Made by a program: the position numbers and the translations under genes. Shown in pieces: positions 3,617-25,052 of a stretch of 64,000 nt of DNA. Where the stretch lies: the IMG/VR virus record IMGVR_UViG_3300025392_000002. One strand, 5' to 3'. Origin of the DNA: a virus (lineage: Duplodnaviria; Caudoviricetes). Numbering within the stretch: the first letter of the stretch is position 1; each line of letters starts with the position of its first letter. The notes below the pieces were generated by a model, which worked only from the letters and a program-made list of their open reading frames with translations, was not told the origin of the DNA and made no database searches.

Positions 3617-3680
3617 TCTAGTTGCAATATGATTTATAAGGTATTATAATAAATACGTATATAACACCGGATAGCGAATC

Positions 3681-4124
3681 ATGGAACTACACCACATCAG
3701 AGATATTACCGATCCATTAGTAAGGATCATAAAAGACGATCCTGTACGACCACACATTCCACTTGAACAACGCATCAATGATGCCGCTGAAATACTAATC
3801 CTAAAAGCAGGAGAGGAAGTTTTAGCGGCAACTTGTATGCAATGGTCGAGCTCTGTTCCAGAAAACGAAACAGACCTAATTGAAATGGGTAAAGACAAAC
3901 GAGTAGCAGTTTTTTATACTATCTGGAGTTACAAGCCAGGCGCCGGTGCAAGTTTGTTAAAACAAGCGGCGGAGTGGCTAAAACAAGAATACACAGATAT
4001 TACAGGTATAGTTACATTGAGCCCACAAACAGAAATGGCCCGTAGATTTCATCTAAAAAACGGCGCTAAAGTACGCAAAGAGAACGCTACTAGCGTAAAT
4101 TACGAGTACTACTTCAAAGAGTAA
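3681..4124 (+). CDS. GNAT-like acetyltransferase
   Basis: GAGASLL motif-A-like segment, ARRFHLKNG; TAAATA upstream. Confidence 0.55.
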   Translation: MELHHIRDITDPLVRIIKDDPVRPHIPLEQRINDAAEILILKAGEEVLAATCMQWSSSVPENETDLIEMGKDKRVAVFYTIWSYKPGAGASLLKQAAEWLKQEYTDITGIVTLSPQTEMARRFHLKNGAKVRKENATSVNYEYYFKE

Positions 4125-13286: not shown

Positions 13287-13491
13287 ACTAGTATATATGC
13301 TAGAACGAGGTACCTGCAGGATCTTTTAGGAACCGCGCGAAAATTTATAAAGAAGTACTTATACTTTTAGAGGGGTGTTTTTACTTCGGTACCCATGCGC
13401 TAGTTAGTAGTTACTAACTTGTTGCATGTATATGCCGGTCGGTGGTCAAAAAATTCTTTTATTATTGCCCTGGTCGGAGGAATATTTCTTC

Positions 13492-13651
13492 AAAAAAAAA
13501 TCCCCTAACTGCCGGGAGCGAATCGGGCTTACGGTTAGGGGATCAAGAACCCATTGCCTTGTTGGCGTTGAGTTCTTAACTACAGACTGGTTGCCGGGAG
13601 CGAATCGTTGGCCAGTCCTACTGCTGTACAGCTACAACTCTAGCGGCTGTA
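13492..13651 (-). ncRNA. putative sRNA with two anti-RBS loops (CGAUUCGCUCCCGG)
   Basis: Promoter TTAACT-17-TATAGT (13686-13658), four hairpins, final hairpin plus U9, exact 16-nt repeat at 13510-13525 and 13592-13607. Confidence 0.65.
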
Positions 13652-13682
13652 TGCTGTACTATATACGCATTAGCTGTTAGAG

Positions 13683-14576
13683 TTAACGGCTAGTACGCAT
13701 ACATGTCATGTCAGCTACTGCCCGCCACTTGTCCGGGAAGCTGGCACGTAAGTCTGCAATCTTAAGTACTGTACGCAAGCTGAGCTCACGTACACGATCA
13801 CTGTTAGACTTGACATAGTCTACTACCTCTAGCTTCTGGTAGTCCTCTAGCTCATACTCATCCAACATACCACACTCAGTTACCACTTGCTCAATGCGCA
13901 ATAGCTTCTCACGTGTAGTGTCAATGGTAAGGTCCAAGTAGTGGCAACGGCTTTCTAATGCTTCCAAGTGATCACGCAACTTCTTGCTCTTAACATGATC
14001 GAACTTGATGTTGGTAATAAAGATAGCACCGCCCTTGAACTCAAAGCTGTCGGGCACACCTTCACGGCGTAGCAATGAACTATCTGTATTCCAACTAATG
14101 GTACGCTTCTTTGAACTGTCTAGTGCTGCCTTCAAGATGTTAAGGCTCAAGTCGTCCAACAAGATGCTGTCACAGTCGTCAAACACTAGGACATTCTTCT
14201 TGTCAGCAAAGTGATAGAGCTTACTGTACAAGCCAATCGCTGACATAGCGCCTTTGACTACTTCATACTTCTTCAGCTTCTGATCGTCAGCTACAGTAGC
14301 GAAGACATCATGCTTGCTGAGTACTTTCTCTACACCAAAGCTCTTGCCAACACCTGGAGGGCCTGTGACAATCATAGCCTTGACCTTGCCGCCTTTTACG
14401 GCACGTGTCATGTCATCCAAAATCTCAAACCTGTCACGCAAACGATCCATGATCTGTTCGTCTGTTTCGGCCGCCAAAGCCTTCTCTTTTGCCTTGATAG
14501 CTGTTTGATCTACTTCCAATGATTTAACTTCGCTCTGCAATGCCATAAGCATCTTTGATGTAACTACCTTACCCAT
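13683..14576 (-). CDS. AAA+/P-loop ATPase
   Basis: GPPGVGKS Walker A, LVFDDCD Walker B, ITN sensor. Confidence 0.85.
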   Translation of the reverse strand: MGKVVTSKMLMALQSEVKSLEVDQTAIKAKEKALAAETDEQIMDRLRDRFEILDDMTRAVKGGKVKAMIVTGPPGVGKSFGVEKVLSKHDVFATVADDQKLKKYEVVKGAMSAIGLYSKLYHFADKKNVLVFDDCDSILLDDLSLNILKAALDSSKKRTISWNTDSSLLRREGVPDSFEFKGGAIFITNIKFDHVKSKKLRDHLEALESRCHYLDLTIDTTREKLLRIEQVVTECGMLDEYELEDYQKLEVVDYVKSNSDRVRELSLRTVLKIADLRASFPDKWRAVADMTCMRTSR

Positions 14577-14648
14577 TTATCGCTCCTTTACGCTGTGGAT
14601 TAATATATTAATTATAACACGGAGTCGCCTCCGTGTCTATGTTTTTGG

Positions 14649-14972
14649 TTAATCTAGTCTGCTACCTGCATAGGCCTTGAGTCCCAGGGCCTGCAAGTAG
14701 TTGGCATAGGCATAGGCGCCTGCTTCTTTGATGTCGATGTTCTGTACGGGAAGTCCTGCTGGATCCCACATGCTGAGACATTTTGGTTTGTAGTCCTTGC
14801 GGAAGCCTGCGGCCAATAGCTCTTTGGCCTGCTTTGAATTGGTACGGTCCACGTAGACCTCAACCCAAGCAAAGCCACAAGCTCCACGGTCGCCGCCCCA
14901 CTTGGCGTACTCTGCGCGGCCTGCTTGTTCTGCCAATACCTTACCTGCACGGATCTGTTCTGCTGTAATCAT
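14649..14972 (-). CDS. hypothetical early protein (GACGFAWV...SRLD)
   Basis: Own promoter and AGGAGCGA RBS. Confidence 0.75.
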   Translation of the reverse strand: MITAEQIRAGKVLAEQAGRAEYAKWGGDRGACGFAWVEVYVDRTNSKQAKELLAAGFRKDYKPKCLSMWDPAGLPVQNIDIKEAGAYAYANYLQALGLKAYAGSRLD

Positions 14973-15014
14973 AAGTATCGCTCCTTATTTGCTGTTGAAG
15001 TAGTAATTATACAG

Positions 15015-15305
15015 TTAAGCCAGCTCTTTGTCAACCAGGGTCAGCATGTTGGCAGGCACTCTCCACAGGCCCATGCCCGTGTTGACTGTGACGTATTTGA
15101 TGGCCACTTTGGTTACGAACCCACGTGTCGCTCTGCCTGTCTTGCTGGATGTGAACTCTACGTTGTCGCCTACACGGATCGAACGTTTGATCTGCTTGGC
15201 TAGGTTAGTACGGTTCCATTTGACTGCATCTATCATTGACGTCAACTCAGTGTTGGTCCAAGACTGTAGCATGATTGCTGAGTTTACTTCTTGAATGGTT
15301 AGCAT
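15015..15305 (-). CDS. hypothetical early protein (SH3/KOW-like C-terminus)
   Basis: RVGDNVEF...G.VTKV..KYV.V...WRVP; promoter and RBS. Confidence 0.7.
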   Translation of the reverse strand: MLTIQEVNSAIMLQSWTNTELTSMIDAVKWNRTNLAKQIKRSIRVGDNVEFTSSKTGRATRGFVTKVAIKYVTVNTGMGLWRVPANMLTLVDKELA

Positions 15306-15348
15306 AGTATCGCTCCTATTTTCTGTTTAAGTGTTTATTATACTAGAT

Positions 15349-15435
15349 TTATTGCCATCCGTCAACCACTAGGATTGCTAGGAACATGACAATGACGGGG
15401 CTCATTAGGATGAGCAAGTTGATGTAAGCCTGCAT
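15349..15435 (-). CDS. 28-aa membrane micropeptide MQAYINLLILMSPVIVMFLAILVVDGWQ
   Basis: Hand translated; TAATG-coupled to upstream gene, GAGG RBS. Confidence 0.5.
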   Translation of the reverse strand: MQAYINLLILMSPVIVMFLAILVVDGWQ

Positions 15436-16133
15436 TATGCTACCTCTTTCAAACGAATTACGAAACCGGAATAGTCCTTCTTAGCACGACCCTTGGCCTT
15501 GAGTCCAAGCATCACGCCCTTAGGGTCTAAGAAGCGCAAGTCTGTCTCATCAGCTGACGGAGTGCCTGCTGGGATCTCATCATATACGGCTACGACTGAC
15601 ATACCTTGCATTAATGCTTCCGCTACATCCGAATCATTTCCGTCTGCCTTGCTGAATGTAAGGTGATAGTTCTTGTACTTAGACACCTTACGACCGAGCA
15701 CCTTAGTGTAGTCATAGAACTGTACATTAGGGAACAATTCAAAGATGTTCTTGTCGTTGATAGTGTACTTCTCCCAGCTCAAGTCGCTAGTACCATTCAA
15801 ACGGAATACAGGGATCAAGCCACGCTTCTCAGCGAACTTGATAGCCTTAGTGATGTCTTCGTACAGATCCTGCATGAAGTAGTCACGGGCTTCAAAGAAG
15901 TACTTGGTCTTGCGGATGCGAGCCTTTTGGATCATATTGGTGTTCTCGCCCCGTTTGAACATACCGCCACGTCCGGCAGTGTTAAGGCAAGCGGCAGTAC
16001 AGCCTGCGGTGCGCTTAGGGCAAGTCTCACGCCCTGACAAGTCTGCTGGTGCCAAATGTAGGATGAAAGACAGATAACCCATCTTAGTACCTTTTTGGAT
16101 CTTAGGGTTTGCTGTGGACAATAATTTAAACAT
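15435..16133 (-). CDS. phage GP88-family protein (Cys-rich, radical-SAM-like)
   Basis: LHLAP, CP..T.GC...CL, RLNGTSDL, FYDYTK, DLRFLDP, GLKAKG. Confidence 0.75.
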   Translation of the reverse strand: MFKLLSTANPKIQKGTKMGYLSFILHLAPADLSGRETCPKRTAGCTAACLNTAGRGGMFKRGENTNMIQKARIRKTKYFFEARDYFMQDLYEDITKAIKFAEKRGLIPVFRLNGTSDLSWEKYTINDKNIFELFPNVQFYDYTKVLGRKVSKYKNYHLTFSKADGNDSDVAEALMQGMSVVAVYDEIPAGTPSADETDLRFLDPKGVMLGLKAKGRAKKDYSGFVIRLKEVA

Positions 16134-16200
16134 AGTTTTCGCTCCTATTGTTTGCTGTTGATATGACTATTATACTGCCTTTTGGGTTGGGCGTCAACCA

Positions 16201-16431
16201 TTAATCCCAATCTTTCTTGCCGCCAAACTGTTCATTCCACTGGTAGCCTGCTAGGTAGGCTTGGATCTCACTGGGCGTCATTTGGCTTTGATCAATGCGC
16301 TCTGAAGTGCCAGTGCCTTCTGTATAGAAGTGAGGGTTGCGTGGACGATGATACCATGAATCTGCTGAGCCCCTATCAAAGGCTCCACCATGGCGGGTAT
16401 CGTACTGCTCGCGGGTTAGTTCTTTAATCAT
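16201..16431 (-). CDS. hypothetical early protein (HGGAFDRGSADSWY)
   Basis: ORF coupled to upstream gene. Confidence 0.7.
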   Translation of the reverse strand: MIKELTREQYDTRHGGAFDRGSADSWYHRPRNPHFYTEGTGTSERIDQSQMTPSEIQAYLAGYQWNEQFGGKKDWD

Positions 16432-16760
16432 ACTGTCTCCTTAAGTGTCAATGTCTTAGCAGGATAAGTGATGGAACCTTCATACTCCAACTGTGACCGC
16501 TCAAATGGAGTCATGAAGCTATCCTCTACGATACCGTAGCCTACGATATACTGACGGCTACCAATGTCGTCCCACTCGATCTGCTCACGGAGCACAAAGA
16601 TCAACTCTTCGATGTGCTCTGCGCTAGGCTCCACTGAACCCAACTGATAGAAGAAGTCCTCACCACCTTTGAACTTCCAGTACTGTGGGCACTCACCTTG
16701 GCCGTCCCAATCATGGGCACCGTAGTTTTCCATGTATTGGGTAGTGATGTGTAGCTTCAT
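16428..16760 (-). CDS. hypothetical early protein (TQYMENYGAHDW...YWKFKGG)
   Basis: Promoter and AGGAGCGA RBS. Confidence 0.75.
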   Translation of the reverse strand: MKLHITTQYMENYGAHDWDGQGECPQYWKFKGGEDFFYQLGSVEPSAEHIEELIFVLREQIEWDDIGSRQYIVGYGIVEDSFMTPFERSQLEYEGSITYPAKTLTLKETV

Positions 16761-16831
16761 TAGGTTCGCTCCTTATTTGCTGTTGATGTTAGTATTATAG
16801 CAAGATTGGGCAGAGTTGTCAACACCTATTT

Positions 16832-16901
16832 GCAAAATAGATCGGCCGAGTGGGCACCTAGATTACACGCCCAGCGATGCCGTCCATCCCGTCGCCTTCG
16901 A
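16832..16901 (-). ncRNA. putative short RNA from a gene-less promoter
   Basis: Perfect TTGACA-17-TATAAT (16936-16908) with no RBS downstream; shares GGGATGGACG with the 24.07 kb copy. Confidence 0.35.
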
Positions 16902-17018
16902 ATCATAATTATACTGGATTGGGCGGGGATTGTCAAGTCGCCGAAACCAAAAAAAAACGACACATCTTTGGGACGTGTCGTCGTAGTCAACGTGTTGTAT
17001 TTCTACAACACCTTTGTA

Positions 17019-17531
17019 TCAGTTTGCGCGGGCTAGTTCTTCAAATGAACTACACTCGTAGCCGTGAAACTTAACAATATGATCATAGGGTTTGTGATAA
17101 CTGTATACTACTTTGCCCACGCCTGAACTAGGGTGAATGGTGATGTTGCGACTCCACATGCTCTTAGGCAAGAAATAGAATTTGAGTCCGTCTTTGTGGG
17201 GATTGTACACAGTACAGCGAAGGGCTCCTTCTTTACGACCACCGCCCGCTGTTTCAACTCCTGTAATTTCACCGCCATAACTATTGCCACCGAGTTTAAG
17301 TGGATTAGCTCGTATGCTAGCAGTCTTAGAATCTGTGCCGTCGCTAAAGTCAGCATGATCGCCGTCGATGAAACGGTATGGGCCCACTGCGGCAAGGCTT
17401 TCTTCAATTAGACGCTCTACATTAAAGATATCAGGGTGCTTGACACCGTACGCACGAAGATCCTTACTGGCCCGGAATTCAGGATGATAAACACAGATTA
17501 CATCTCTCATCAGTACTAGACTCTTTGACAT
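17019..17531 (-). CDS. putative PD-(D/E)xK restriction-endonuclease-like protein
   Basis: E...ADFSDGTDSKT motif; own promoter and RBS. Confidence 0.45.
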   Translation of the reverse strand: MSKSLVLMRDVICVYHPEFRASKDLRAYGVKHPDIFNVERLIEESLAAVGPYRFIDGDHADFSDGTDSKTASIRANPLKLGGNSYGGEITGVETAGGGRKEGALRCTVYNPHKDGLKFYFLPKSMWSRNITIHPSSGVGKVVYSYHKPYDHIVKFHGYECSSFEELARAN

Positions 17532-17606
17532 GGTTCGCTCCTATGTGTTGTTTAAGTCTTAATTGTATAGCCAAAAAATAACCCAGTCAACCGCTGGGTT
17601 ATTGAA

Positions 17607-17683
17607 TGGTGGGCCCACCTGGACTCGAACCAGGGACCAAAGGATTATGAGTCCTCTGCTCTAACCAACTGAGCTATAGGCCC
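17607..17683 (-). tRNA. tRNA with CAT anticodon, Ile2 (lysidine)-like; elongator Met not excluded
   Basis: GGGCCTATAGCTCAGTTGGTTAGAGCAGAGGACTCATAATCCTTTGGTCCCTGGTTCGAGTCCAGGTGGGCCCACCA; full cloverleaf, encoded CCA. Confidence 0.93.
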
Positions 17684-17856
17684 TGATATCGTTTAACTTC
17701 TCTCAAGTCATCATCCTTGTCTTCCAGGATGTAGACTTCATCACAGAACTCTCGTTCGTTTTCTGCGATCTCTTCGGCTTCTCTAAGGGTGGGCACACAC
17801 TCAATCAGCTCTTCATGCTGATCTCGTATGCCCCAGATCTCATACTGTAGAAACAT
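17674..17856 (-). CDS. small acidic hypothetical protein
   Basis: ORF; stop lies in the 5' end of the tRNA. Confidence 0.55.
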   Translation of the reverse strand: MFLQYEIWGIRDQHEELIECVPTLREAEEIAENEREFCDEVYILEDKDDDLREVKRYQGL

Positions 17857-17857
17857 C

Positions 17858-18205
17858 TTAGAAAGGAGCGTCTTCGTCCTCAGTTACCTTAGCAGTAGCT
17901 TTGACTGCTGGAGTCTTTGTTGCCTTGGTAGCAACAGGCTTGGAGACCTTAGCCTTAGGTGAGTTGTCTTCAATGTATTCAGTGATGGTAGACTGCGCTA
18001 CTGCATCAGCAAAATCTTCAAGACCTAGGATGATCTTAGCGGCATCCATCTTAGAGAAAGAACCTTCAAGATCTGCCAAACGGATGTCTTCATGGCCGCT
18101 CTTAGCGAGAACCTTGATACGCATCATATCGTTAGCAAAGCGAACTTTGTAGTCGCCATTGAGCTTGCTAATACCTGCAACTGTGAATAATTTATCTGTA
18201 GCCAT
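17858..18205 (-). CDS. hypothetical protein (KVRFAND..RIKVL.K.GH), K/A-rich tail
   Basis: Promoter and GAGG RBS. Confidence 0.7.
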   Translation of the reverse strand: MATDKLFTVAGISKLNGDYKVRFANDMMRIKVLAKSGHEDIRLADLEGSFSKMDAAKIILGLEDFADAVAQSTITEYIEDNSPKAKVSKPVATKATKTPAVKATAKVTEDEDAPF

Positions 18206-18292
18206 TTGTTACCTCTATGTGTGTGTTAAAAAATATGTTATTGAGCCAATCTCTCTAACATGTTCAAATTATACAACTCTTTTGGTTAGTTG

Positions 18293-18556
18293 TCAACCAT
18301 TTCTCTTCTGTTTTGGGCGAATTTTTGGTTGTTGCGTTTTCACAACATTCTTAAACTCCTTTTGAATATAGTATTCAATCAAAGCTCTTTGAATCATAGT
18401 TACCAAATCAACTCCATGGTCCTCAGGACAGATAAAACGATACGGACTAGACTTCCAACTGCGTTCAGTAACGAACTTATAATAGATCTGACGATGCTCT
18501 CGTAGACTAGGGTCAAACGCAACCAATGGCCTACTTAGGAATTCTAGTCTACTCAT
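18293..18556 (-). CDS. hypothetical early protein
   Basis: Likely start MSRLEF, coupled to upstream ORF. Confidence 0.65.
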   Translation of the reverse strand: MSRLEFLSRPLVAFDPSLREHRQIYYKFVTERSWKSSPYRFICPEDHGVDLVTMIQRALIEYYIQKEFKNVVKTQQPKIRPKQKRNG

Positions 18557-18681
18557 TTGGCAAGAACCCACGCCCTCACTACTTCTTCAAGGGCTGTAAA
18601 TTTGTAGTCAACTGGCTTAGGGCGTACCTTAGCAGTCATCCTAGCATTATGCTCTAGGTTCTTTTCTTTATTGGTTTTCAT
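18553..18681 (-). CDS. 42-aa hypothetical protein
   Basis: Hand translated MKTNKEK...RAWVLAK, downstream of promoter at 18734. Confidence 0.55.
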   Translation of the reverse strand: MKTNKEKNLEHNARMTAKVRPKPVDYKFTALEEVVRAWVLAK

Positions 18682-18742
18682 TGCTGTTCCATTTGTTGTT
18701 GTTAAACCTAATTATACTGCCTTTTGGGTAGGCAGTCAACCA

Positions 18743-19315
18743 TTACTCTTCGGACTCTTCTTCGTATTCAGCAATGGATTCGGAGATGCCCATGATCTCA
18801 TCAAGATCTCTAGGCAGTTCTGTTTCTACCTGCTCCGATGTCATACCGCCCACTTCATAGTAGTCGTCACCATTCTCATCATAGATACCAGCAAAGGCCA
18901 TGCCACACTCATAGTAGAACGCCCTAAGGGTATAACCCTGCTCCATCAATGCTTCGTAGACTCCACAAGGAGGTGCCCAGGCTGAATCAAAGCCAAAGGT
19001 GATACCATTCTTGTCATGCTGGTCGTCATACTCTACCTTGTCGTAAGGATCCACATCCCACTTAGTTCCCCATTCGTTTACGCAGAAGTCATACCAGTTC
19101 TTGTAGCCATACTTCTCTTCGTTGATGACCTCTTGGGCCTCTAACTTCTTCTGATCGTCTGGATCACCAAGTTTGCCTGCTGTGATACCTAAATCTTCTG
19201 GAACAGGAATAGCAAAGTTACAGAACTTGCCTTCGTTAATGGCCTCAACCAAGGCATACATCTTGGCAGGGTCTTCGTGATTAATTTGAACTGTGTTATT
19301 GCACCAATTAGGCAT
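18743..19315 (-). CDS. Api92/YubB ferredoxin-like domain protein
   Basis: MPNWCNN, WYDF...WGTKWD, FDSAWAPP. Confidence 0.75.
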   Translation of the reverse strand: MPNWCNNTVQINHEDPAKMYALVEAINEGKFCNFAIPVPEDLGITAGKLGDPDDQKKLEAQEVINEEKYGYKNWYDFCVNEWGTKWDVDPYDKVEYDDQHDKNGITFGFDSAWAPPCGVYEALMEQGYTLRAFYYECGMAFAGIYDENGDDYYEVGGMTSEQVETELPRDLDEIMGISESIAEYEEESEE

Positions 19316-19487
19316 TGTCGGCTCCTAGGTTAATTACTTGGGTTGTCTGATATTCGAAACTCTTAGTCTGGGGTCTAACATCTCCCAAAGACAGGGCAAA
19401 GATGTCCTCTGCCTCGTCTTGATCCTCTGCTTCTACCACGCCTTCGTAGTAGACTTCTTCATAGGCTGTCACTTGGAACTTGGGCAT
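19308..19487 (-). CDS. 59-aa acidic hypothetical protein
   Basis: Hand translated MPKFQVTAYEE... Confidence 0.55.
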   Translation of the reverse strand: MPKFQVTAYEEVYYEGVVEAEDQDEAEDIFALSLGDVRPQTKSFEYQTTQVINLGADNA

Positions 19488-19488
19488 C

Positions 19489-19755
19489 TTAGACTCCCAT
19501 TTCGTAAAAGGTTACTGAAGGATCAATGCTGAGCAATTCCTCAGCACAACGAGTAAGATTACGCATCTTGGAACGAACCACTGACTGAGGCAGTTCGCCA
19601 TCGCAGGTAAGGTTCTCTGGGCTCATCTCGCTGTCAATGTAGTTGGCAATAGCCTGGCGATCTGCACCGTTCAACAAGCTCAAAGGCTTTTGGTTGAATA
19701 CGGCACGCCATTTGTTCTTGTTCTCTACATACTGCTCTAGTGTGCTAATGTTCAT
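19489..19755 (-). CDS. hypothetical early protein (SPENLTCDGE)
   Basis: Promoter and AGGAGCGA RBS. Confidence 0.75.
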   Translation of the reverse strand: MNISTLEQYVENKNKWRAVFNQKPLSLLNGADRQAIANYIDSEMSPENLTCDGELPQSVVRSKMRNLTRCAEELLSIDPSVTFYEMGV

Positions 19756-19794
19756 AAAGTTCGCTCCTTATGTGTTGTTGAAGTAGTTATTATA

Positions 19795-20043
19795 CTAGAT
19801 TTTACGGATCTTGTCAATAACCATGTTCGCTTCCTGGTTATTGCTTAGGGCTAGGTTAGCCTCTAGATCTAGCTCTTGGGAGCGTAAGAGTAGCTCACGA
19901 CTGTAAGCGTCCATGAGCTCTTGGGCATAGATCTTGTCATCTTCGTCGGCCTGTGCAAACCAAGCCTTAAAGTCATCGCCCTTAGTGTTGAGCAAGAACT
20001 CTAGGTTGTCCCTGTCCCATTCGTTGGTGATTAGGCCTTTCAT
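19795..20043 (-). CDS. hypothetical early protein
   Basis: ORF with RBS. Confidence 0.65.
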   Translation of the reverse strand: MKGLITNEWDRDNLEFLLNTKGDDFKAWFAQADEDDKIYAQELMDAYSRELLLRSQELDLEANLALSNNQEANMVIDKIRKI

Positions 20044-20183
20044 TCGTCGCGTCCTTTGTGTTTAGGGTTGCGTTTAAATGCTTTCTTGTTTTCCACCCGC
20101 TTAGGTTTGAAGGGTGTATTCTCACAGAAGAGCACGAAATGTGCTCGGGTCTTCTGTGGTATTTTTACAACGATCTTCATCAT
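20040..20183 (-). CDS. 47-aa basic protein, ArfA-like
   Basis: Hand translated; LF..NTPFKPKRVENKKAFKRNPKHK; promoter and AGGAG RBS. Confidence 0.5.
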   Translation of the reverse strand: MMKIVVKIPQKTRAHFVLFCENTPFKPKRVENKKAFKRNPKHKGRDE

Positions 20184-20230
20184 GTGCTCCTGTCTGTATA
20201 AATGTATTATACAACCAAAAGCTCAAAATG

Positions 20231-20419
20231 TCAAGCGCCGTAATACGTTGTTTCGTCCTGCTCAATGCCGTTGAGTTGCATCCATGCGTAGACATACTCT
20301 ACAGGCACATCTAGGGTCTTGGCAATGTTCTTTTCAGTCAAGCCCTCGATGTACAGTTGTTCAATATCATAGGCATACATATCTAGTTCAGCCATCTTAC
20401 TCATCAAAGCTCTCCTCAC
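20231..20419 (-). CDS. small HTH-like protein
   Basis: EGLTEKNIAKTLDVPVEYV. Confidence 0.55.
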   Translation of the reverse strand: MRRALMSKMAELDMYAYDIEQLYIEGLTEKNIAKTLDVPVEYVYAWMQLNGIEQDETTYYGA

Positions 20420-20612
20420 CCATCTCTGTTACTTTCTCTTCCACAACGCCAAGGTCGACGATGCGGGCTGTTTGATCTGTATTGCTTACACCTTGGAAGG
20501 CTGTGCGGAATGACTGATTCTCTGCGAGGAAATCAAACACATCCTCACGAGCCCAGCTATCGGGTACCTCAAGCTCTTGTATCAATAGCGTTTCAACTCT
20601 AACTGTTTTCAT
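20397..20612 (-). CDS. hypothetical protein
   Basis: Likely start MKTVRV (AAGGAG RBS); upstream start at 20669 possible. Confidence 0.55.
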   Translation of the reverse strand: MKTVRVETLLIQELEVPDSWAREDVFDFLAENQSFRTAFQGVSNTDQTARIVDLGVVEEKVTEMGEESFDE

Positions 20613-20665
20613 ACCAGCTCCTTTAAGTTTAGCAAGGGCCTGAGCCCTCTTTGATTGAAACCCTG

Positions 20666-21157
20666 TCATTCTGCACACTCTTTTGGATCGAGCTTGGCAA
20701 TAGCTGGGGCAAGTTTCTTCCAACGCTCGCCGTTGCGCTTGTAGTGCCACTCGCCTACTGTGTAGTCGCTTGCCTTAGTATACTTGAAGACATAGTAGTA
20801 GTCGCTCCAAGTATAGTGATCGCAAGCCTTAGCAAGTGTATCAAACACTTTAAAGCCAACGTCTGCTTCGCCTCTGTCGCGTCCGTAAAATGTACAGGAG
20901 TCGCCGTGCTCTGCTTCGTAAGCCTCTTGCTCTTCCTTAGTCAAATCAAATGTGCTGAATGCGTGTTGTACACCAATCTCTTTGCGCAAGCTACTCAAGT
21001 CGCCCAGGGCAATCAAGTTGTTGACTTTAGGGCTTGCTGAATAGTGTTTCTGCAAGATAGCGCCGTTGTGTTCCAAGTACCCATCCCAGTGGCAGTAGAC
21101 TGCGCGAACTGTTTTGTTGTAAGGGTTTTGAATAGCAATCATTGAACGTGTACCCAT
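20666..21157 (-). CDS. hypothetical phage protein (MGTRS...YCHWDGY)
   Basis: Promoter and RBS; start corrected to MGTRS. Confidence 0.75.
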   Translation of the reverse strand: MGTRSMIAIQNPYNKTVRAVYCHWDGYLEHNGAILQKHYSASPKVNNLIALGDLSSLRKEIGVQHAFSTFDLTKEEQEAYEAEHGDSCTFYGRDRGEADVGFKVFDTLAKACDHYTWSDYYYVFKYTKASDYTVGEWHYKRNGERWKKLAPAIAKLDPKECAE

Positions 21158-21216
21158 TTGCTCAGCTCCTTGTGTGTTTGTGTATGTGTTTATTATAGCG
21201 CCTTTTGGGCACCCAG

Positions 21217-21435
21217 TCAACCTTCAAGCCAACAATCCCTGGCCAGCTCTGTGGTTATTGTTTCGCCGCCGATGTAGTCCCCATGGAACCCGCTTGGGCT
21301 AATACTTTCCAGGACTAGGGCCTTGCCTGTGTAGCTCTGCTTGATCTCTACAATCTTGCCCGATTGCTCAATGTCGCATTTGAAATTGACAACATCTCCT
21401 ACAGTGACCTCTTGTCCGTCTACCAGTGCTTTCAT
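21217..21435 (-). CDS. hypothetical early protein
   Basis: ORF, stop inside next -35 box. Confidence 0.65.
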   Translation of the reverse strand: MKALVDGQEVTVGDVVNFKCDIEQSGKIVEIKQSYTGKALVLESISPSGFHGDYIGGETITTELARDCWLEG

Positions 21436-21602
21436 TCTGCCTCCGCTGGTTCAAACATACGAGCACCCATGTCCATAAAGACGTCAAATGTCTTAAGGAA
21501 GTCCTCATCGTACTTGTGACGGTTAACTTTGATGGCAAACAGGCCTACTAGAAGGTCTCCATTGCCTACTTCTTTCGCTACTTTTACCAGATGATCAAAC
21601 AT
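21432..21602 (-). CDS. 56-aa hypothetical protein
   Basis: Hand translated MFDHLVK...; promoter and AGGAGCGA RBS. Confidence 0.65.
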   Translation of the reverse strand: MFDHLVKVAKEVGNGDLLVGLFAIKVNRHKYDEDFLKTFDVFMDMGARMFEPAEAE

Positions 21603-21661
21603 AAGTTTCGCTCCTTATTGTTACTGTTAAAAATATATTATACAACCAAAATCAGTTACTG

Positions 21662-21993
21662 TCAACCAGGGATGCTACAAGGTAGCTTATCATCGTTTGA
21701 CCCCAGCGACAGTAATTAGATTGGGCGGGCAGAGCGTGCTCCTCGTTTAATGTTCAGCCCACTGGCCAACACCCTGTAACCGTACAGTTAGGGAAGAACT
21801 AAAGGGGCTCCGGACTAGGCGCTAGTACCGTCTACTAGATCGTCTGCCTTCGCTATTACTGCCTACTTACTATCGCCGCTTCTCCGAGCCTAAGCCCTGT
21901 TTCATGCCCCAGTTCAAGCGTATCCGTCGATACTGTCCTCTACCTGGGCGCCTAGCGATGTAGGTAACCTTTAATGCTTTCCTAACTGTCTAT
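21662..21993 (-). ncRNA. putative ~330-nt structured non-coding RNA
   Basis: Own TTGACA-17-TATAAT promoter, no ORF of 60 aa or more; long-range stem ACAGTTAGG/CCTAACTGT and many internal helices. Confidence 0.6.
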
Positions 21994-22032
21994 GTGCTTA
22001 TTATAGCACATAGACCCTAACCTGTCAATAAC

Positions 22033-22104
22033 CTATTGTTTTGGACGGTCTTTACAAACTTCAAATCCCTTCCAGTGCCACTTTCTGCAATAGGTACATT
22101 CCAT
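22033..22104 (-). CDS. 23-aa Cys/His micropeptide MECTYCRKWHWKGFEVCKDRPKQ
   Basis: Own promoter and AAGGAG RBS. Confidence 0.55.
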   Translation of the reverse strand: MECTYCRKWHWKGFEVCKDRPKQ

Positions 22105-22172
22105 TGTCTGCTCCTTTGTTGCTAAGTCTTTATTATAGCGCCAAACGAGCAGACTGTCAATAACCTTTCAAT

Positions 22173-22511
22173 TTACTCAACTTCTTCTTCATCCACTTCG
22201 TTCAAGTAGTCAAAGCATTCTTGTACACGACTTGACTCTGTGTTGAAGAATGTATAGTCTCCACAGACCATGCGTCCTTCACCCTCTTTGATGTACTCAA
22301 AGCCACCATAGTAGTCAATAGCACTGGGAGAGTTTTGGACAGCAATCACTTCCTCATCCCTATCAATGTACACAGGACCACAGCGTACATCCAGACCCAA
22401 CTCTGTAGGACTGCATCGTTCCATCTTGCGTACATGACGCTCCACAACCTCGTTGACTGCGTCAATCATGTCCAATGTGCTGTCAAAGTCTGTATCAGTA
22501 AAGTAACCCAT
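22173..22511 (-). CDS. hypothetical early protein (YYGGFEY)
   Basis: Promoter and AGGAGCGA RBS. Confidence 0.75.
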   Translation of the reverse strand: MGYFTDTDFDSTLDMIDAVNEVVERHVRKMERCSPTELGLDVRCGPVYIDRDEEVIAVQNSPSAIDYYGGFEYIKEGEGRMVCGDYTFFNTESSRVQECFDYLNEVDEEEVE

Positions 22512-22567
22512 TTGGTTCGCTCCTTAATGTGTTTAAGTGTTAATTATAGCACCATCTAGCCAAACTG

Positions 22568-22777
22568 TCAACCGCAAAACACTTCTTTAGACAAGATCCG
22601 GTCCTCAACCAGCTCGTGTGCCAAGTTAAGGGCCATAGTGGCTACGGTGATAGCAATAATGCGCTCTTGCCCATTAAAGCGTTGACAGTACTCCATCAGC
22701 TGGTCCAAGCTCTCTGGGGTTGCAAACAATCCGGTCTTTGGGATTGGGTTTTGAACAACGTCGTAAATGCCTGACAT
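22568..22777 (-). CDS. hypothetical early protein
   Basis: Promoter and AGGAGCGA RBS. Confidence 0.7.
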   Translation of the reverse strand: MSGIYDVVQNPIPKTGLFATPESLDQLMEYCQRFNGQERIIAITVATMALNLAHELVEDRILSKEVFCG

Positions 22778-22834
22778 AAGTATCGCTCCTTTTGTTAGTT
22801 GATGTTAGTATTATAGCTGAATCTGGGTTACCTG

Positions 22835-23053
22835 TCAACCAAATGCCTTGAATAACCCTACTAGGCATATGGCTATTGAAACTGCATTTGTTACTAGTTG
22901 TGGAGTGTTGCGCACACGTATGCTCCACACCAAGTAACATGCCCCTCCAAGTACTCCAGCCACAATGTTCCAGGGGTACTGGTTCATTGACATTAATGCG
23001 TACATGGCAAGGAAGCAGGCAGTGCCCGCCCACTGTATTATGCTATTAAACAT
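22835..23053 (-). CDS. small 3-TM membrane protein
   Basis: Hydrophobic helices; likely start MFNSII. Confidence 0.6.
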   Translation of the reverse strand: MFNSIIQWAGTACFLAMYALMSMNQYPWNIVAGVLGGACYLVWSIRVRNTPQLVTNAVSIAICLVGLFKAFG

Positions 23054-23432
23054 CAATGCACTCTCTCCAAACGGTGTACAAGTGTGCTTCGTCCAAACGC
23101 TCAAGTCCTGCTAAAAACTTGGCACCCACGTCCAAGCTAACGTACTCGTCATCCTGCATACCCTGCTCGCTGTACTCCACGTCCATAGCTTCTGCTTCTG
23201 TAAAGCCAATTGTCTGCAAGTACACACGTAATTGAGCTTTGAATAGCGGGTCTGTGTAAATTAATCCGTCTACTGTACAGTCCCAGCTAGCAGGGCTAAA
23301 GTGTACGCACAGCTCGCCAAAGTCCTTCTCAACGTTGCAGTACTGCAAGCGCAGTCCAGTAATGTCTACACGGGCCTGCTTGCGTGACCAGTAGCCGGTA
23401 CCGCTTGTTTGTAGTGTTGTAAAAACATTCAT
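23046..23432 (-). CDS. hypothetical early protein (GLIYTD...YSEQGMQ)
   Basis: Promoter and AGGAGCGA RBS. Confidence 0.75.
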   Translation of the reverse strand: MNVFTTLQTSGTGYWSRKQARVDITGLRLQYCNVEKDFGELCVHFSPASWDCTVDGLIYTDPLFKAQLRVYLQTIGFTEAEAMDVEYSEQGMQDDEYVSLDVGAKFLAGLERLDEAHLYTVWRECIDV

Positions 23433-23463
23433 AAGTTTCGCTCCTTAAAAAACAATTATAACA

Positions 23464-24008: not shown

Positions 24009-24196
24009 TTGACTGAACTACCAAAATCCAGTATAATTATGGTATGGTTCGAACAGCATACACTGGGGATGGACGTGGACTGTGCCTGGCAGTTCTTAAG
24101 TTAGTTGGTGCCAACTAACTTGCCAAGTTAGTAAGTGCTTACTTGTTGTTTTTGAACGACGAAATTGAAAAAACCCGCTTGACAAAGTGGGTTTTG
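24009..24196 (+). ncRNA. divergent sigma70 promoter driving a putative short RNA that ends at a terminator-like hairpin
   Basis: TTGACT-17-TATAAT 24009-24037; GGGATGGACG; palindromes 24098-24143; hairpin 24167-24196. Confidence 0.35.
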
Positions 24197-24728: not shown

Positions 24729-25052
24729 ACAGCGGGGTCTTATGCATTCGAGTGCATACCCTCATATACCATCATGCTACAGCGGGGTCTATTATACTAT
24801 ATGTCAGCTATATACTAATACACACTAGGAGCGAACCATGCGTGTATACTGTTATCAAACTTGGGCAGACAAGCCTACACAAGAACAGCTTTGGCTATGT
24901 AGTCTACATGTATGTGCGTTGCCCGCAGGCTCTGCACGTTTCTATATACGTGAAGACCGTTTATCCTTTGCTCACATATTGGATCCCCACATGCGTCATA
25001 TAAGAAGTTTGGACTACTATGAATAACTGTGCGTATGCTAACAGCGGGGTCT
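24729..25052 (+). repeat. dispersed 12-mer ACAGCGGGGTCT, 3 copies
   Basis: Exact copies at 24729, 24779, 25041. Confidence 0.8.
24838..25026 (+). CDS. hypothetical protein
   Basis: TAGGAGCGAACC-ATG RBS identical to early array. Confidence 0.65.
   Translation: MRVYCYQTWADKPTQEQLWLCSLHVCALPAGSARFYIREDRLSFAHILDPHMRHIRSLDYYE

Follow-up and report, generated by a model that had tools for sequence, protein, structure and literature searches.

A hairpin unit at the end of an early gene array

Why would the 3' end of an early phage transcript display, twice, the complement of the ribosome sites that head early genes? The question is posed by a 64,000-nucleotide (nt) stretch of DNA from the IMG/VR virus record IMGVR_UViG_3300025392_000002 (Duplodnaviria; Caudoviricetes), hereafter the window. 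A leftward array of early genes ends here on the minus strand with a gene coding for an AAA-type ATPase, followed by a unit of four hairpins, two of which carry in their loops the complement of GGAGCGA, an extended Shine-Dalgarno (SD) sequence (hereafter the tag). With somewhat more confidence than doubt, we favor the reading that the unit is a conserved RNA element in a 3' untranslated region (3'UTR), which would end an early array driven by the host RNA polymerase and pair with early SD regions. The ATPase gene and the unit comprise the following features, the folds being predicted:

14611..14639, minus strand: sigma70-type promoter of the ATPase gene, TAGACA-17-TATAAT (11/12 consensus positions)
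13683..14576, minus strand: gene of the 297-residue AAA-type ATPase, a T4 NrdC.10 homologue (phrog_1250), last gene of the leftward early array; open reading frame (ORF) with PHROG and Pfam matches
13658..13686, minus strand: candidate own promoter of the unit, TTAACT-17-TATAGT, weak (9/12 consensus positions) and not conserved
13492..13682, minus strand: whole 3'UTR unit, four hairpins and U9, from the fold; kept behind the ATPase gene in relatives
13626..13659, minus strand: hairpin 1, without a complement of the tag, from the fold
13584..13618, minus strand: hairpin 2, with outer stem GACUGG/CCAGUC, 4x4 internal loop CCAA/GCAA, CG/CG clamp and 9-nt loop
13597..13605, minus strand: loop 1, AUUCGCUCC, complementary to GGAGCGAAU; probability of being unpaired 0.85-0.99
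13545..13577, minus strand: hairpin 3, inner GCC-AACAA-GGC, from the fold; present in only a subset of relatives
13499..13544, minus strand: hairpin 4, intrinsic terminator with stem UCCCCUAAC/GUUAGGGGA and the second loop copy inside, from the fold
13515..13523, minus strand: loop 2, AUUCGCUCC; opening cost 2.0 kcal/mol
13492..13500, minus strand: U9 terminator tail, from the sequence

The unit adjoins the stop codon (13683-13685) of the ATPase gene. An earlier sequence-only reading of this DNA had described a minus-strand unit of four hairpins with a U9 terminator, and the predicted fold of the 176-nt RNA agrees, with a free energy of -64.2 kcal/mol (z = -5.0) and a final hairpin TCCCCTAAC/GTTAGGGGA running into U9. 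The exact 16-nt repeat that it had noticed, CGATTCGCTCCCGGCA, has just two copies in the 64 kb, both on the minus strand (13510-13525 and 13592-13607), which lie in the loops of the terminator and of hairpin 2, respectively. Its 9-nt core AUUCGCUCC is the complement of GGAGCGA(A). Neither copy is predicted to be buried in a stem: loop 1 is open, requiring 0.16 kcal/mol, and the terminator loop requires 2.0 kcal/mol. The UUCG inside the loop would fit the YUNR U-turn motif, familiar from antisense RNA loops.

A scan found only about two minus-strand terminator-like sites inside the array, at 16982-16956 and 17603-17577. As no terminator is predicted between the last 5-6 promoters and the unit, transcripts from those promoters should all end in it. 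By its position, the unit appears to serve mainly as 3'UTR to the ATPase mRNA, and the last 5-6 early transcription units would share it as their 3' end. The sequence-only reading had instead proposed a free-standing small RNA (sRNA) that starts at its own promoter, acts in trans and silences the tagged genes as a timed regulon. The promoter-like site does exist (13686-13658), overlapping the ATPase stop codon, and the 5' hairpin, the open seed loops and the intrinsic terminator with its U-run at the 3' end give the unit the look of an sRNA. However, the site matches only 9/12 consensus positions, far fewer than the 11-12/12 of the array promoters, and it is missing from the same place in the relatives inspected, leaving an independent sRNA gene unsupported for want of a conserved promoter directly upstream. 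Moreover, one clade has the loop hairpin 600-900 nt behind the ATPase gene, with further genes in between and no own promoter evident, and processing of the 3'UTR would yield an identical RNA with no promoter needed. We regard the free-standing sRNA as quite improbable.

Conservation of the hairpin module as a minus-strand RNA

The exact 16-mer was found in 98 stretches of IMG/VR viral contigs, part of which are chance matches in unrelated contigs; most of those inspected lie just 3' of the ATPase gene. With the module defined as G-AUUCGCUCC-C, 180 distinct modules were gathered from viral contigs. Their outer stems have at least five Watson-Crick pairs in 151/180 cases, compared to about 40 when the 3' flanks are permuted among the modules, and include 122 different 5' arms. 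A run of at least six T follows no more than 110 nt downstream in 152/180. The loop seed, for which conservation in relatives had been named as a check, is invariant throughout these 180 modules, which are defined by it.

In alignment A1, which holds 38 distinct copies of hairpin 2 (type A) from relatives, 98.2% of the cells are paired, 15 of them as G-U, and compensatory changes are seen at 7/7 outer pairs. None of 500 shuffles reached the observed covariation score, and the signal collapsed upon sliding the partners by 1-3 columns. No variation occurs in columns 10-27 and 29-30; the picture is one of stems that are free to vary and a G-C pair that closes a fixed 9-nt loop, AUUCGCUCC. The 4x4 internal loop CCAA/G(C/U)AA is also invariant in the 38 sequences, and the stem beneath it varies freely. 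Over the module stems, G-U exceeds A-C by 47 to 16. The stem covariation and this excess indicate that the module is an RNA hairpin read from the minus strand, usually near a 3' end.

The plus-strand reading, in which GGAGCGA would stand in the loops as a CsrB-like decoy or as the ribosome binding site (RBS) of a plus-strand ORF, was rejected on the orientation of the terminator, the excess of G-U over A-C and the lack of an ORF. A protein sponge of the CsrB/RsmZ type was rejected as well, as GGA is displayed only on the plus strand and the RNA is placed on the minus strand (47:16 G-U to A-C, and the 15 G-U cells in A1). Searched against the Rfam covariance models, the element gave no match at the gathering score, and with E relaxed to 10 only chance-level matches appeared. 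None of 185,579 bacterial and archaeal genomes contains the 21-nt type-A core, which speaks against any host or prophage copy.

Some relatives have three loop hairpins in a row (L103 8540-8670, L055 230-330 and L067 1000-1110), with slightly different loop flanks (AAUUCGCUCC, GAAUCGCUCC and GAUUCGCUCC). These triplets sit behind the ATPase gene or behind a 90-residue gene whose product ends in ...YKAKAMGIT(L/I), indicating that the number of modules is variable.

The GGAGCGA tag and its promoter-leader cassette

GGAGCGA has 18 copies in the window, where 2.7 are expected, and 0/100 shuffles reached 18. The same 12 gene starts that the sequence-only reading had listed as bearing the complement of the loop core in their RBSs were recovered. 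Eleven copies stand 3-6 nt upstream of minus-strand ATGs, from 14576 to 23432, and one stands before the plus-strand ATG at 24838:

14580..14586, minus strand: tag in the RBS of the ATPase gene itself
14978..14984, minus strand: tagged RBS, gene start 14972, behind the promoter at 15034
15310..15316, minus strand: tagged RBS, gene start 15305
16139..16145, minus strand: tagged RBS, gene start 16133
16766..16772, minus strand: tagged RBS, gene start 16760
17535..17541, minus strand: tagged RBS, gene start 17531
19761..19767, minus strand: tagged RBS, gene start 19755
21608..21614, minus strand: tagged RBS, gene start 21602
22517..22523, minus strand: tagged RBS, gene start 22511
22783..22789, minus strand: tagged RBS, gene start 22777
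23438..23444, minus strand: tagged RBS, gene start 23432
24828..24834, plus strand: tagged RBS of the divergent gene, start 24838

The CGA extension is found on 11/22 of the GGAG-type ribosome sites in the early array compared to 1/25 elsewhere in the window, so its rarity outside the early genes, also part of the sequence-only reading, is borne out. That reading had further taken the tag to be a sequence address on the SD. The complementarity to the early SD extension is real, but the tag is not free-standing: it forms the 3' end of a repeated cassette composed of GGTTGACA-17-TATAAT, about 7 nt, an A/C-rich leader of about 25 nt, GGAGCGA and ATG. Between 14.6 and 24 kb the minus strand has 22 consensus sigma70-type promoters, 11 of which head the tagged leader and four more GGAGC followed by A or T; two have no ORF, and the remainder a different ribosome site or none. 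The tag, as its placement indicates, marks promoter-proximal cistrons and travels with the promoter-leader module.

Such a composite of sigma70 promoter, SD and start codon, repeated between small early genes, resembles the PeSL cassettes of T4-like phages, in which a sigma70-like early promoter with SD and start codon recurs between small variable early genes (PMC2839356, PMC4122927). The likeness explains how one leader can come to head many genes. Some relatives have the loop hairpin and terminator with TTGACA directly after. Most promoters of this array, by the terminator scan, appear to have no stem-loop before them. Term searches of PMC4122927 found no mention of loop-SD complementarity.

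Two further readings of the tag and loop were rejected. The tag is not a T4 RegB/S1 target, as it has C at position 5, which is counter-selected in the 11-nt consensus of GGA(G) plus A-rich sequence, GGAGAAUAAAA (PMC1702504). The loop is not the remnant of an inverted leader cassette either, its likeness to the reverse-complemented leader ending at UUCGCUCC. As for host 16S rRNA, GGGAGCGAA occurs in helix 24 of some phyla, in a region buried in the mature 30S subunit, and we set this pairing aside.

Predicted duplexes and joint occurrence of loop and tag

Position 8, just after the tag, is A in 75% of the 318 distinct tagged leaders of the family, which extends the match to 8 bp. The predicted duplex of the loop with a tagged leader has an energy of -13.2 to -14.5 kcal/mol, compared to -7.0 +/- 2.8 for untagged starts and about -8 for an anti-SD tail of E. 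coli type on the same sites. The strongest predicted duplex in the window (-18.6 kcal/mol) lies elsewhere: CCGGAUAGCGAAUC-AUG at 3651-3695 on the plus strand, the start of a 147-residue gene (3681-4124) behind the gene of a DnaB-like helicase, complements the loop together with its closing stem (CCGG..GCGAAUC) and has no GGAG. By this predicted energy, the site may be an extra target of the loop or a chance match.

In loop-bearing relatives, GGAGCGA is present at 299/667 GGAG sites, compared to 0 of about 81 in lineages without the loop; loop-less records of 95 kb and 77 kb have only 1-2 copies of GGAGCGA on either strand. Among 136 loci, loop and tag are both present in 71, both absent in 52 and discordant in 13; in most of the latter, the sequence available upstream of the ATPase gene is too short or the loop is a variant that the search pattern misses. 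The own SD of the ATPase gene matches the loop exactly in 39/63 loop-bearing relatives.

A 96%-complete relative of 356 kb has true loop modules at one place only, as a pair behind the ATPase gene, and its tagged genes are grouped in the array running up to them. Extra copies of ATTCGCTCC in this genome were rejected as further loops, being tags on the opposite strand or a chance match in a coding region.

Co-change of loop and SD in distant lineages

A distant set consisted of fetched ATPase homologues of 49-56% identity. In several separate lineages of this set, the first hairpin after the stop codon has a loop complementary to the SD region of its own gene, and the sequence of the pair differs from lineage to lineage:

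L074: GGAGCGAG / CUCGCUCC
L259 and L260: GAUGGAGCG / CGCUCCAUC
L258: GGAGGAGCA / UGCUCCUCC
L265 and L266: AAAGGAACAGA / UCUGUUCCUUU
L223, L224 and L226: GAGUGAGAG / CUCUCACUC

In a matrix of RBSs against 3'UTRs by lineage, the diagonal dominates (7, 8, 9, 9, 11, 9, 6); off-diagonal values are 4-7, save for related lineages and one A/T-rich chance match. L261, L263 and the L181-L212 group showed nothing comparable. The co-variation of loop and tag that the sequence-only reading had asked for in relatives is therefore upheld by lineage-specific pairs of loop and ATPase SD and by joint presence or absence, while the co-occurrence is statistically weak. As far as sequences can tell, the co-change in distant lineages is the strongest evidence for selection on SD-loop pairing, and that this pairing is the selected function of the element is, in our judgment, reasonably likely.

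In the distant lineages only the own SD of the ATPase gene matches the 3'UTR loop, and the neighbor genes have ordinary SDs. Judged from this distribution, the deepest conserved relation is that of the loop with the SD of the ATPase gene, the regulon-wide reach is probably secondary, and the ancestral target was probably the ATPase mRNA itself. Autoregulation purely in cis would follow if the loops paired solely with the SD of their own ATPase mRNA, and the other tags were a by-product of cassette spread without regulatory meaning. Besides the ordinary SDs of the neighbors, it is in keeping with the tag belonging to a repeated cassette, and with the known spread of PeSL-type promoter-SD cassettes in T4-like genomes (PMC2839356, PMC4122927). 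Within the GGAGCGA clade, however, the same loop also ends early genes of 90, about 100 and 58 residues whose own SDs are untagged. Moreover, L019, L020 and L022 retain their loops despite the ATPase SD AAAGGAACAC. Because loops end untagged genes, because the loop lies 600-900 nt off in one clade and because the ATPase SD matches worse than other early leaders in 24/63 relatives, cis pairing is not the whole story in this clade, and we consider cis-only action unlikely.

Evidence against the pairing

Several observations weigh against pairing of the loop with early SD regions as its selected function. When tag and loop are mapped onto the ATPase tree, only 3-4 changes of state are seen and 2 independent pairs have support, so the co-occurrence of the two is consistent with coupling but statistically weak. 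The control by longest match in the distant set is noisy: matches of at least 9 nt number 8, compared to 4 and 1 in two controls. The duplex is short (7-8 bp), and two loops would face about 12 tagged leaders expressed from very strong promoters. In 24/63 loop-bearing relatives, the ATPase SD is GGAGCGU, GGAGCGC or GGAGCGG, which pair over 6 bp, and in a few it is AAAGGAACAC with no match. Furthermore, GGAGCAY is the uniform leader of the L075 lineage, and no loop complementary to this leader of L075/L076 was found in the 95 kb of L075 searched. Cassette inheritance alone can thus make SD extensions uniform, and a uniform extension by itself is no proof of an antisense partner.

The ATPase of L075/L076 is 64% identical to that of the window, and its gene is not the last in the array. 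The array there shares the architecture of the window, with closely spaced promoters (TTGAC...TATTAT), and the uniform leader ...CATAAACAAAGGAGCAY lacks the GGAGCGA tag.

Finally, conservation extends beyond the pairing nucleotides, to the CCAA/G(C/U)AA internal loop, the CG clamp and, in the terminator version, a UAAGYC bulge. As tag pairing leaves these parts unexplained, they point to a partner protein or to a tertiary fold by which the loop is presented. They form the case for a rival view, in which the loops are sites for an RNA-binding protein or chaperone, of phage or host origin, or act as structural stabilizers of the 3' end, with the complementarity to the tag incidental. A lineage-specific co-change of loop and SD would be unexpected for such sites, and so would the joint absence of loop and tag in sister lineages; we deem an exclusively protein-binding or structural role very improbable.

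Proposed mode of action

We infer the direction, timing and trans action of the pairing from sequence features and propose the following course. The loops would pair with tagged SD regions over 7-8 bp, perhaps within the same transcript, as the transcripts of the last 5-6 promoters should carry the unit at their 3' end, and perhaps also in trans, from an accumulating nuclease-resistant 3' fragment. The duplex would occlude 30S binding, such that early protein synthesis would be dampened or shut off while early RNA builds up. The system probably originated as 5'UTR-3'UTR autoregulation of the ATPase mRNA and gained its regulon-wide reach in the GGAGCGA clade, because the tagged leader travels with the repeated promoter-leader cassette.

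Judging from RsaE and RNAIII with their UCCC loops (PMC2790875), and given a duplex that would cover both the SD core and the spacer, the effect on tagged genes is probably repression. A positive role would have the loop shield early leaders from an endonuclease, or join the 5' and 3' ends to stabilize the transcripts. Covariation speaks to selection on the pairing and leaves its effect undefined, and in T4-like phages early SD regions are known targets of RegB together with ribosomal protein S1 (PMC1702504, PMC3014915). Nevertheless, covering the GGAG core and spacer blocks initiation in the characterized cases (PMC3868564, PMC2790875), and no RegB-like gene turned up here, though no search was aimed at one; we see a positive role as an improbable outcome.

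More tentatively, and with doubt outweighing confidence, it is conceivable that T4-related jumbo phages use a private and evolvable SD/anti-SD address code, by which an RNA loop ending the early transcripts would recognize the SD extension carried along by a mobile promoter-leader cassette. Acquisition of a cassette would then join a gene to a translational regulon, the accumulating 3' fragment would switch the regulon off in trans, and the address would be re-coded between lineages. If true, such a code would be the RNA counterpart of the T4 RegB/RegA early shut-off.

Comparison with known systems

The class of mechanism is known, both for anti-SD loops and for 3'UTR-to-SD pairing. The icaR mRNA of Staphylococcus aureus has in its 3'UTR a motif, UCCCCUG, that pairs with the SD of that message (PMC3868564). 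The arrangement in the window is alike: the ATPase message carries both the tag, at 14580-14586, and two complementary 3'UTR loops, and phage SD and 3'UTR loop change together in distant lineages. Compared to icaR, the phage loops are duplicated, stand in covarying hairpins, one of which is the terminator, and match an SD extension common to about 11 other early cistrons. The phage duplex of 7-11 bp is too short for an obvious RNase III substrate. Moreover, icaR is a bacterial mRNA, whereas the pairing in the phage is a predicted one.

RsaE and RNAIII bind the SDs of their targets through UCCC loops (PMC2790875), and the cuckoo/CcsR family of sRNAs carries CCUCCUCCC loops (PMC4615179). As in these anti-SD loop riboregulators, several phage hairpins show the same C/U-rich motif, unpaired in conserved loops on variable stems and complementary to SD regions, and the terminator loop can carry the seed. 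The phage element differs in matching none of the Rfam models by sequence or structure, in a motif that extends 3-4 nt past the generic SD and would thereby address a private subset of messages, and in being encoded in a phage 3'UTR and directed at the early genes of the phage itself.

With T4 RegB/S1 and RegA, the unit would share post-transcriptional control through the SD core and flanking nucleotides of early genes in a T4-related phage (PMC1702504, PMC3014915). RegB/S1 is a protein system, whereas the recognizing partner here would be RNA. The post-transcriptional end of the early programme in large lytic phages is known mainly from the protein factors of T4, and the unit would represent an RNA-only solution. 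A literature search found no description of such an element in phages. What appears to be new is the phage-encoded form conserved across the family, the private SD extension as a target, the re-coding of the pair between lineages and the link to a mobile promoter-leader cassette. The few cases of 3'UTR-to-SD pairing known from bacteria are joined by a well-supported new RNA motif. Its address of 7-11 nt is recognizable and can be re-coded, and loop and tag offer a natural and orthogonal pair for masking an SD. Since the parts are commonplace, namely sigma70 promoters, a standard SD core and an intrinsic terminator, the hypothesis is open to E. coli reporters without phage culture.

The source phage

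The Pfam matches of the ATPase (AAA_16/AAA) are weak, and its homologue in Vibrio phage phi-pp2 carries the annotation 'similar to T4 nrdC.10'. The window also codes for a DnaB-like helicase, virion proteins and a tRNA-Met. The GenBank phage collection held no DNA match to the window, near or distant, and only protein-level relatives of at most 47% identity. In contrast to this lack of close deposited relatives, IMG/VR has many, some on contigs of 345-356 kb, the fetched ATPase proteins being only 56-89% identical, and close ATPase homologues in metagenomes number more than 8000. A further search found 3391 NrdC.10-like homologues. Together these findings indicate that the source is an abundant uncultured jumbo phage related to T4, and the element is conserved across this very abundant group. 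Among the cultured carriers of an ATPase homologue, the intergenic gaps of PA5oct and phi-pp2 measure about 45 nt and leave no room for the element, and RDJL6 has a plain terminator.

Other features of the early region

A tRNA-Met (CAT) gene lies inside the early array at 17607-17683 on the minus strand, next to the tagged gene that starts at 17531, and the terminator-like hairpin at 17603-17577 overlaps a promoter. Perfect or near-perfect TTGACA-17-TATAAT promoters without an SD-led ORF are found at 16936-16832 and 22028-21668 on the minus strand and at 24009-24196 on the plus strand; by sequence pattern they are candidates for further small RNAs of the early region. Just past the U9 terminator, a block of about 150 nt (13300-13450, minus strand) recurs at the same place in many relatives, among them L031, L033, L035, L038, L041, L045, L053 and L057, with the common motifs ...caacagcgca..., ...aaaatcacca... 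and ...taagtacttctttataattttttgcgcg.... It contains neither an obvious ORF nor a sigma70 promoter. The block may serve as a promoter specific to the phage, or mark the boundary between the early array and the module that follows.

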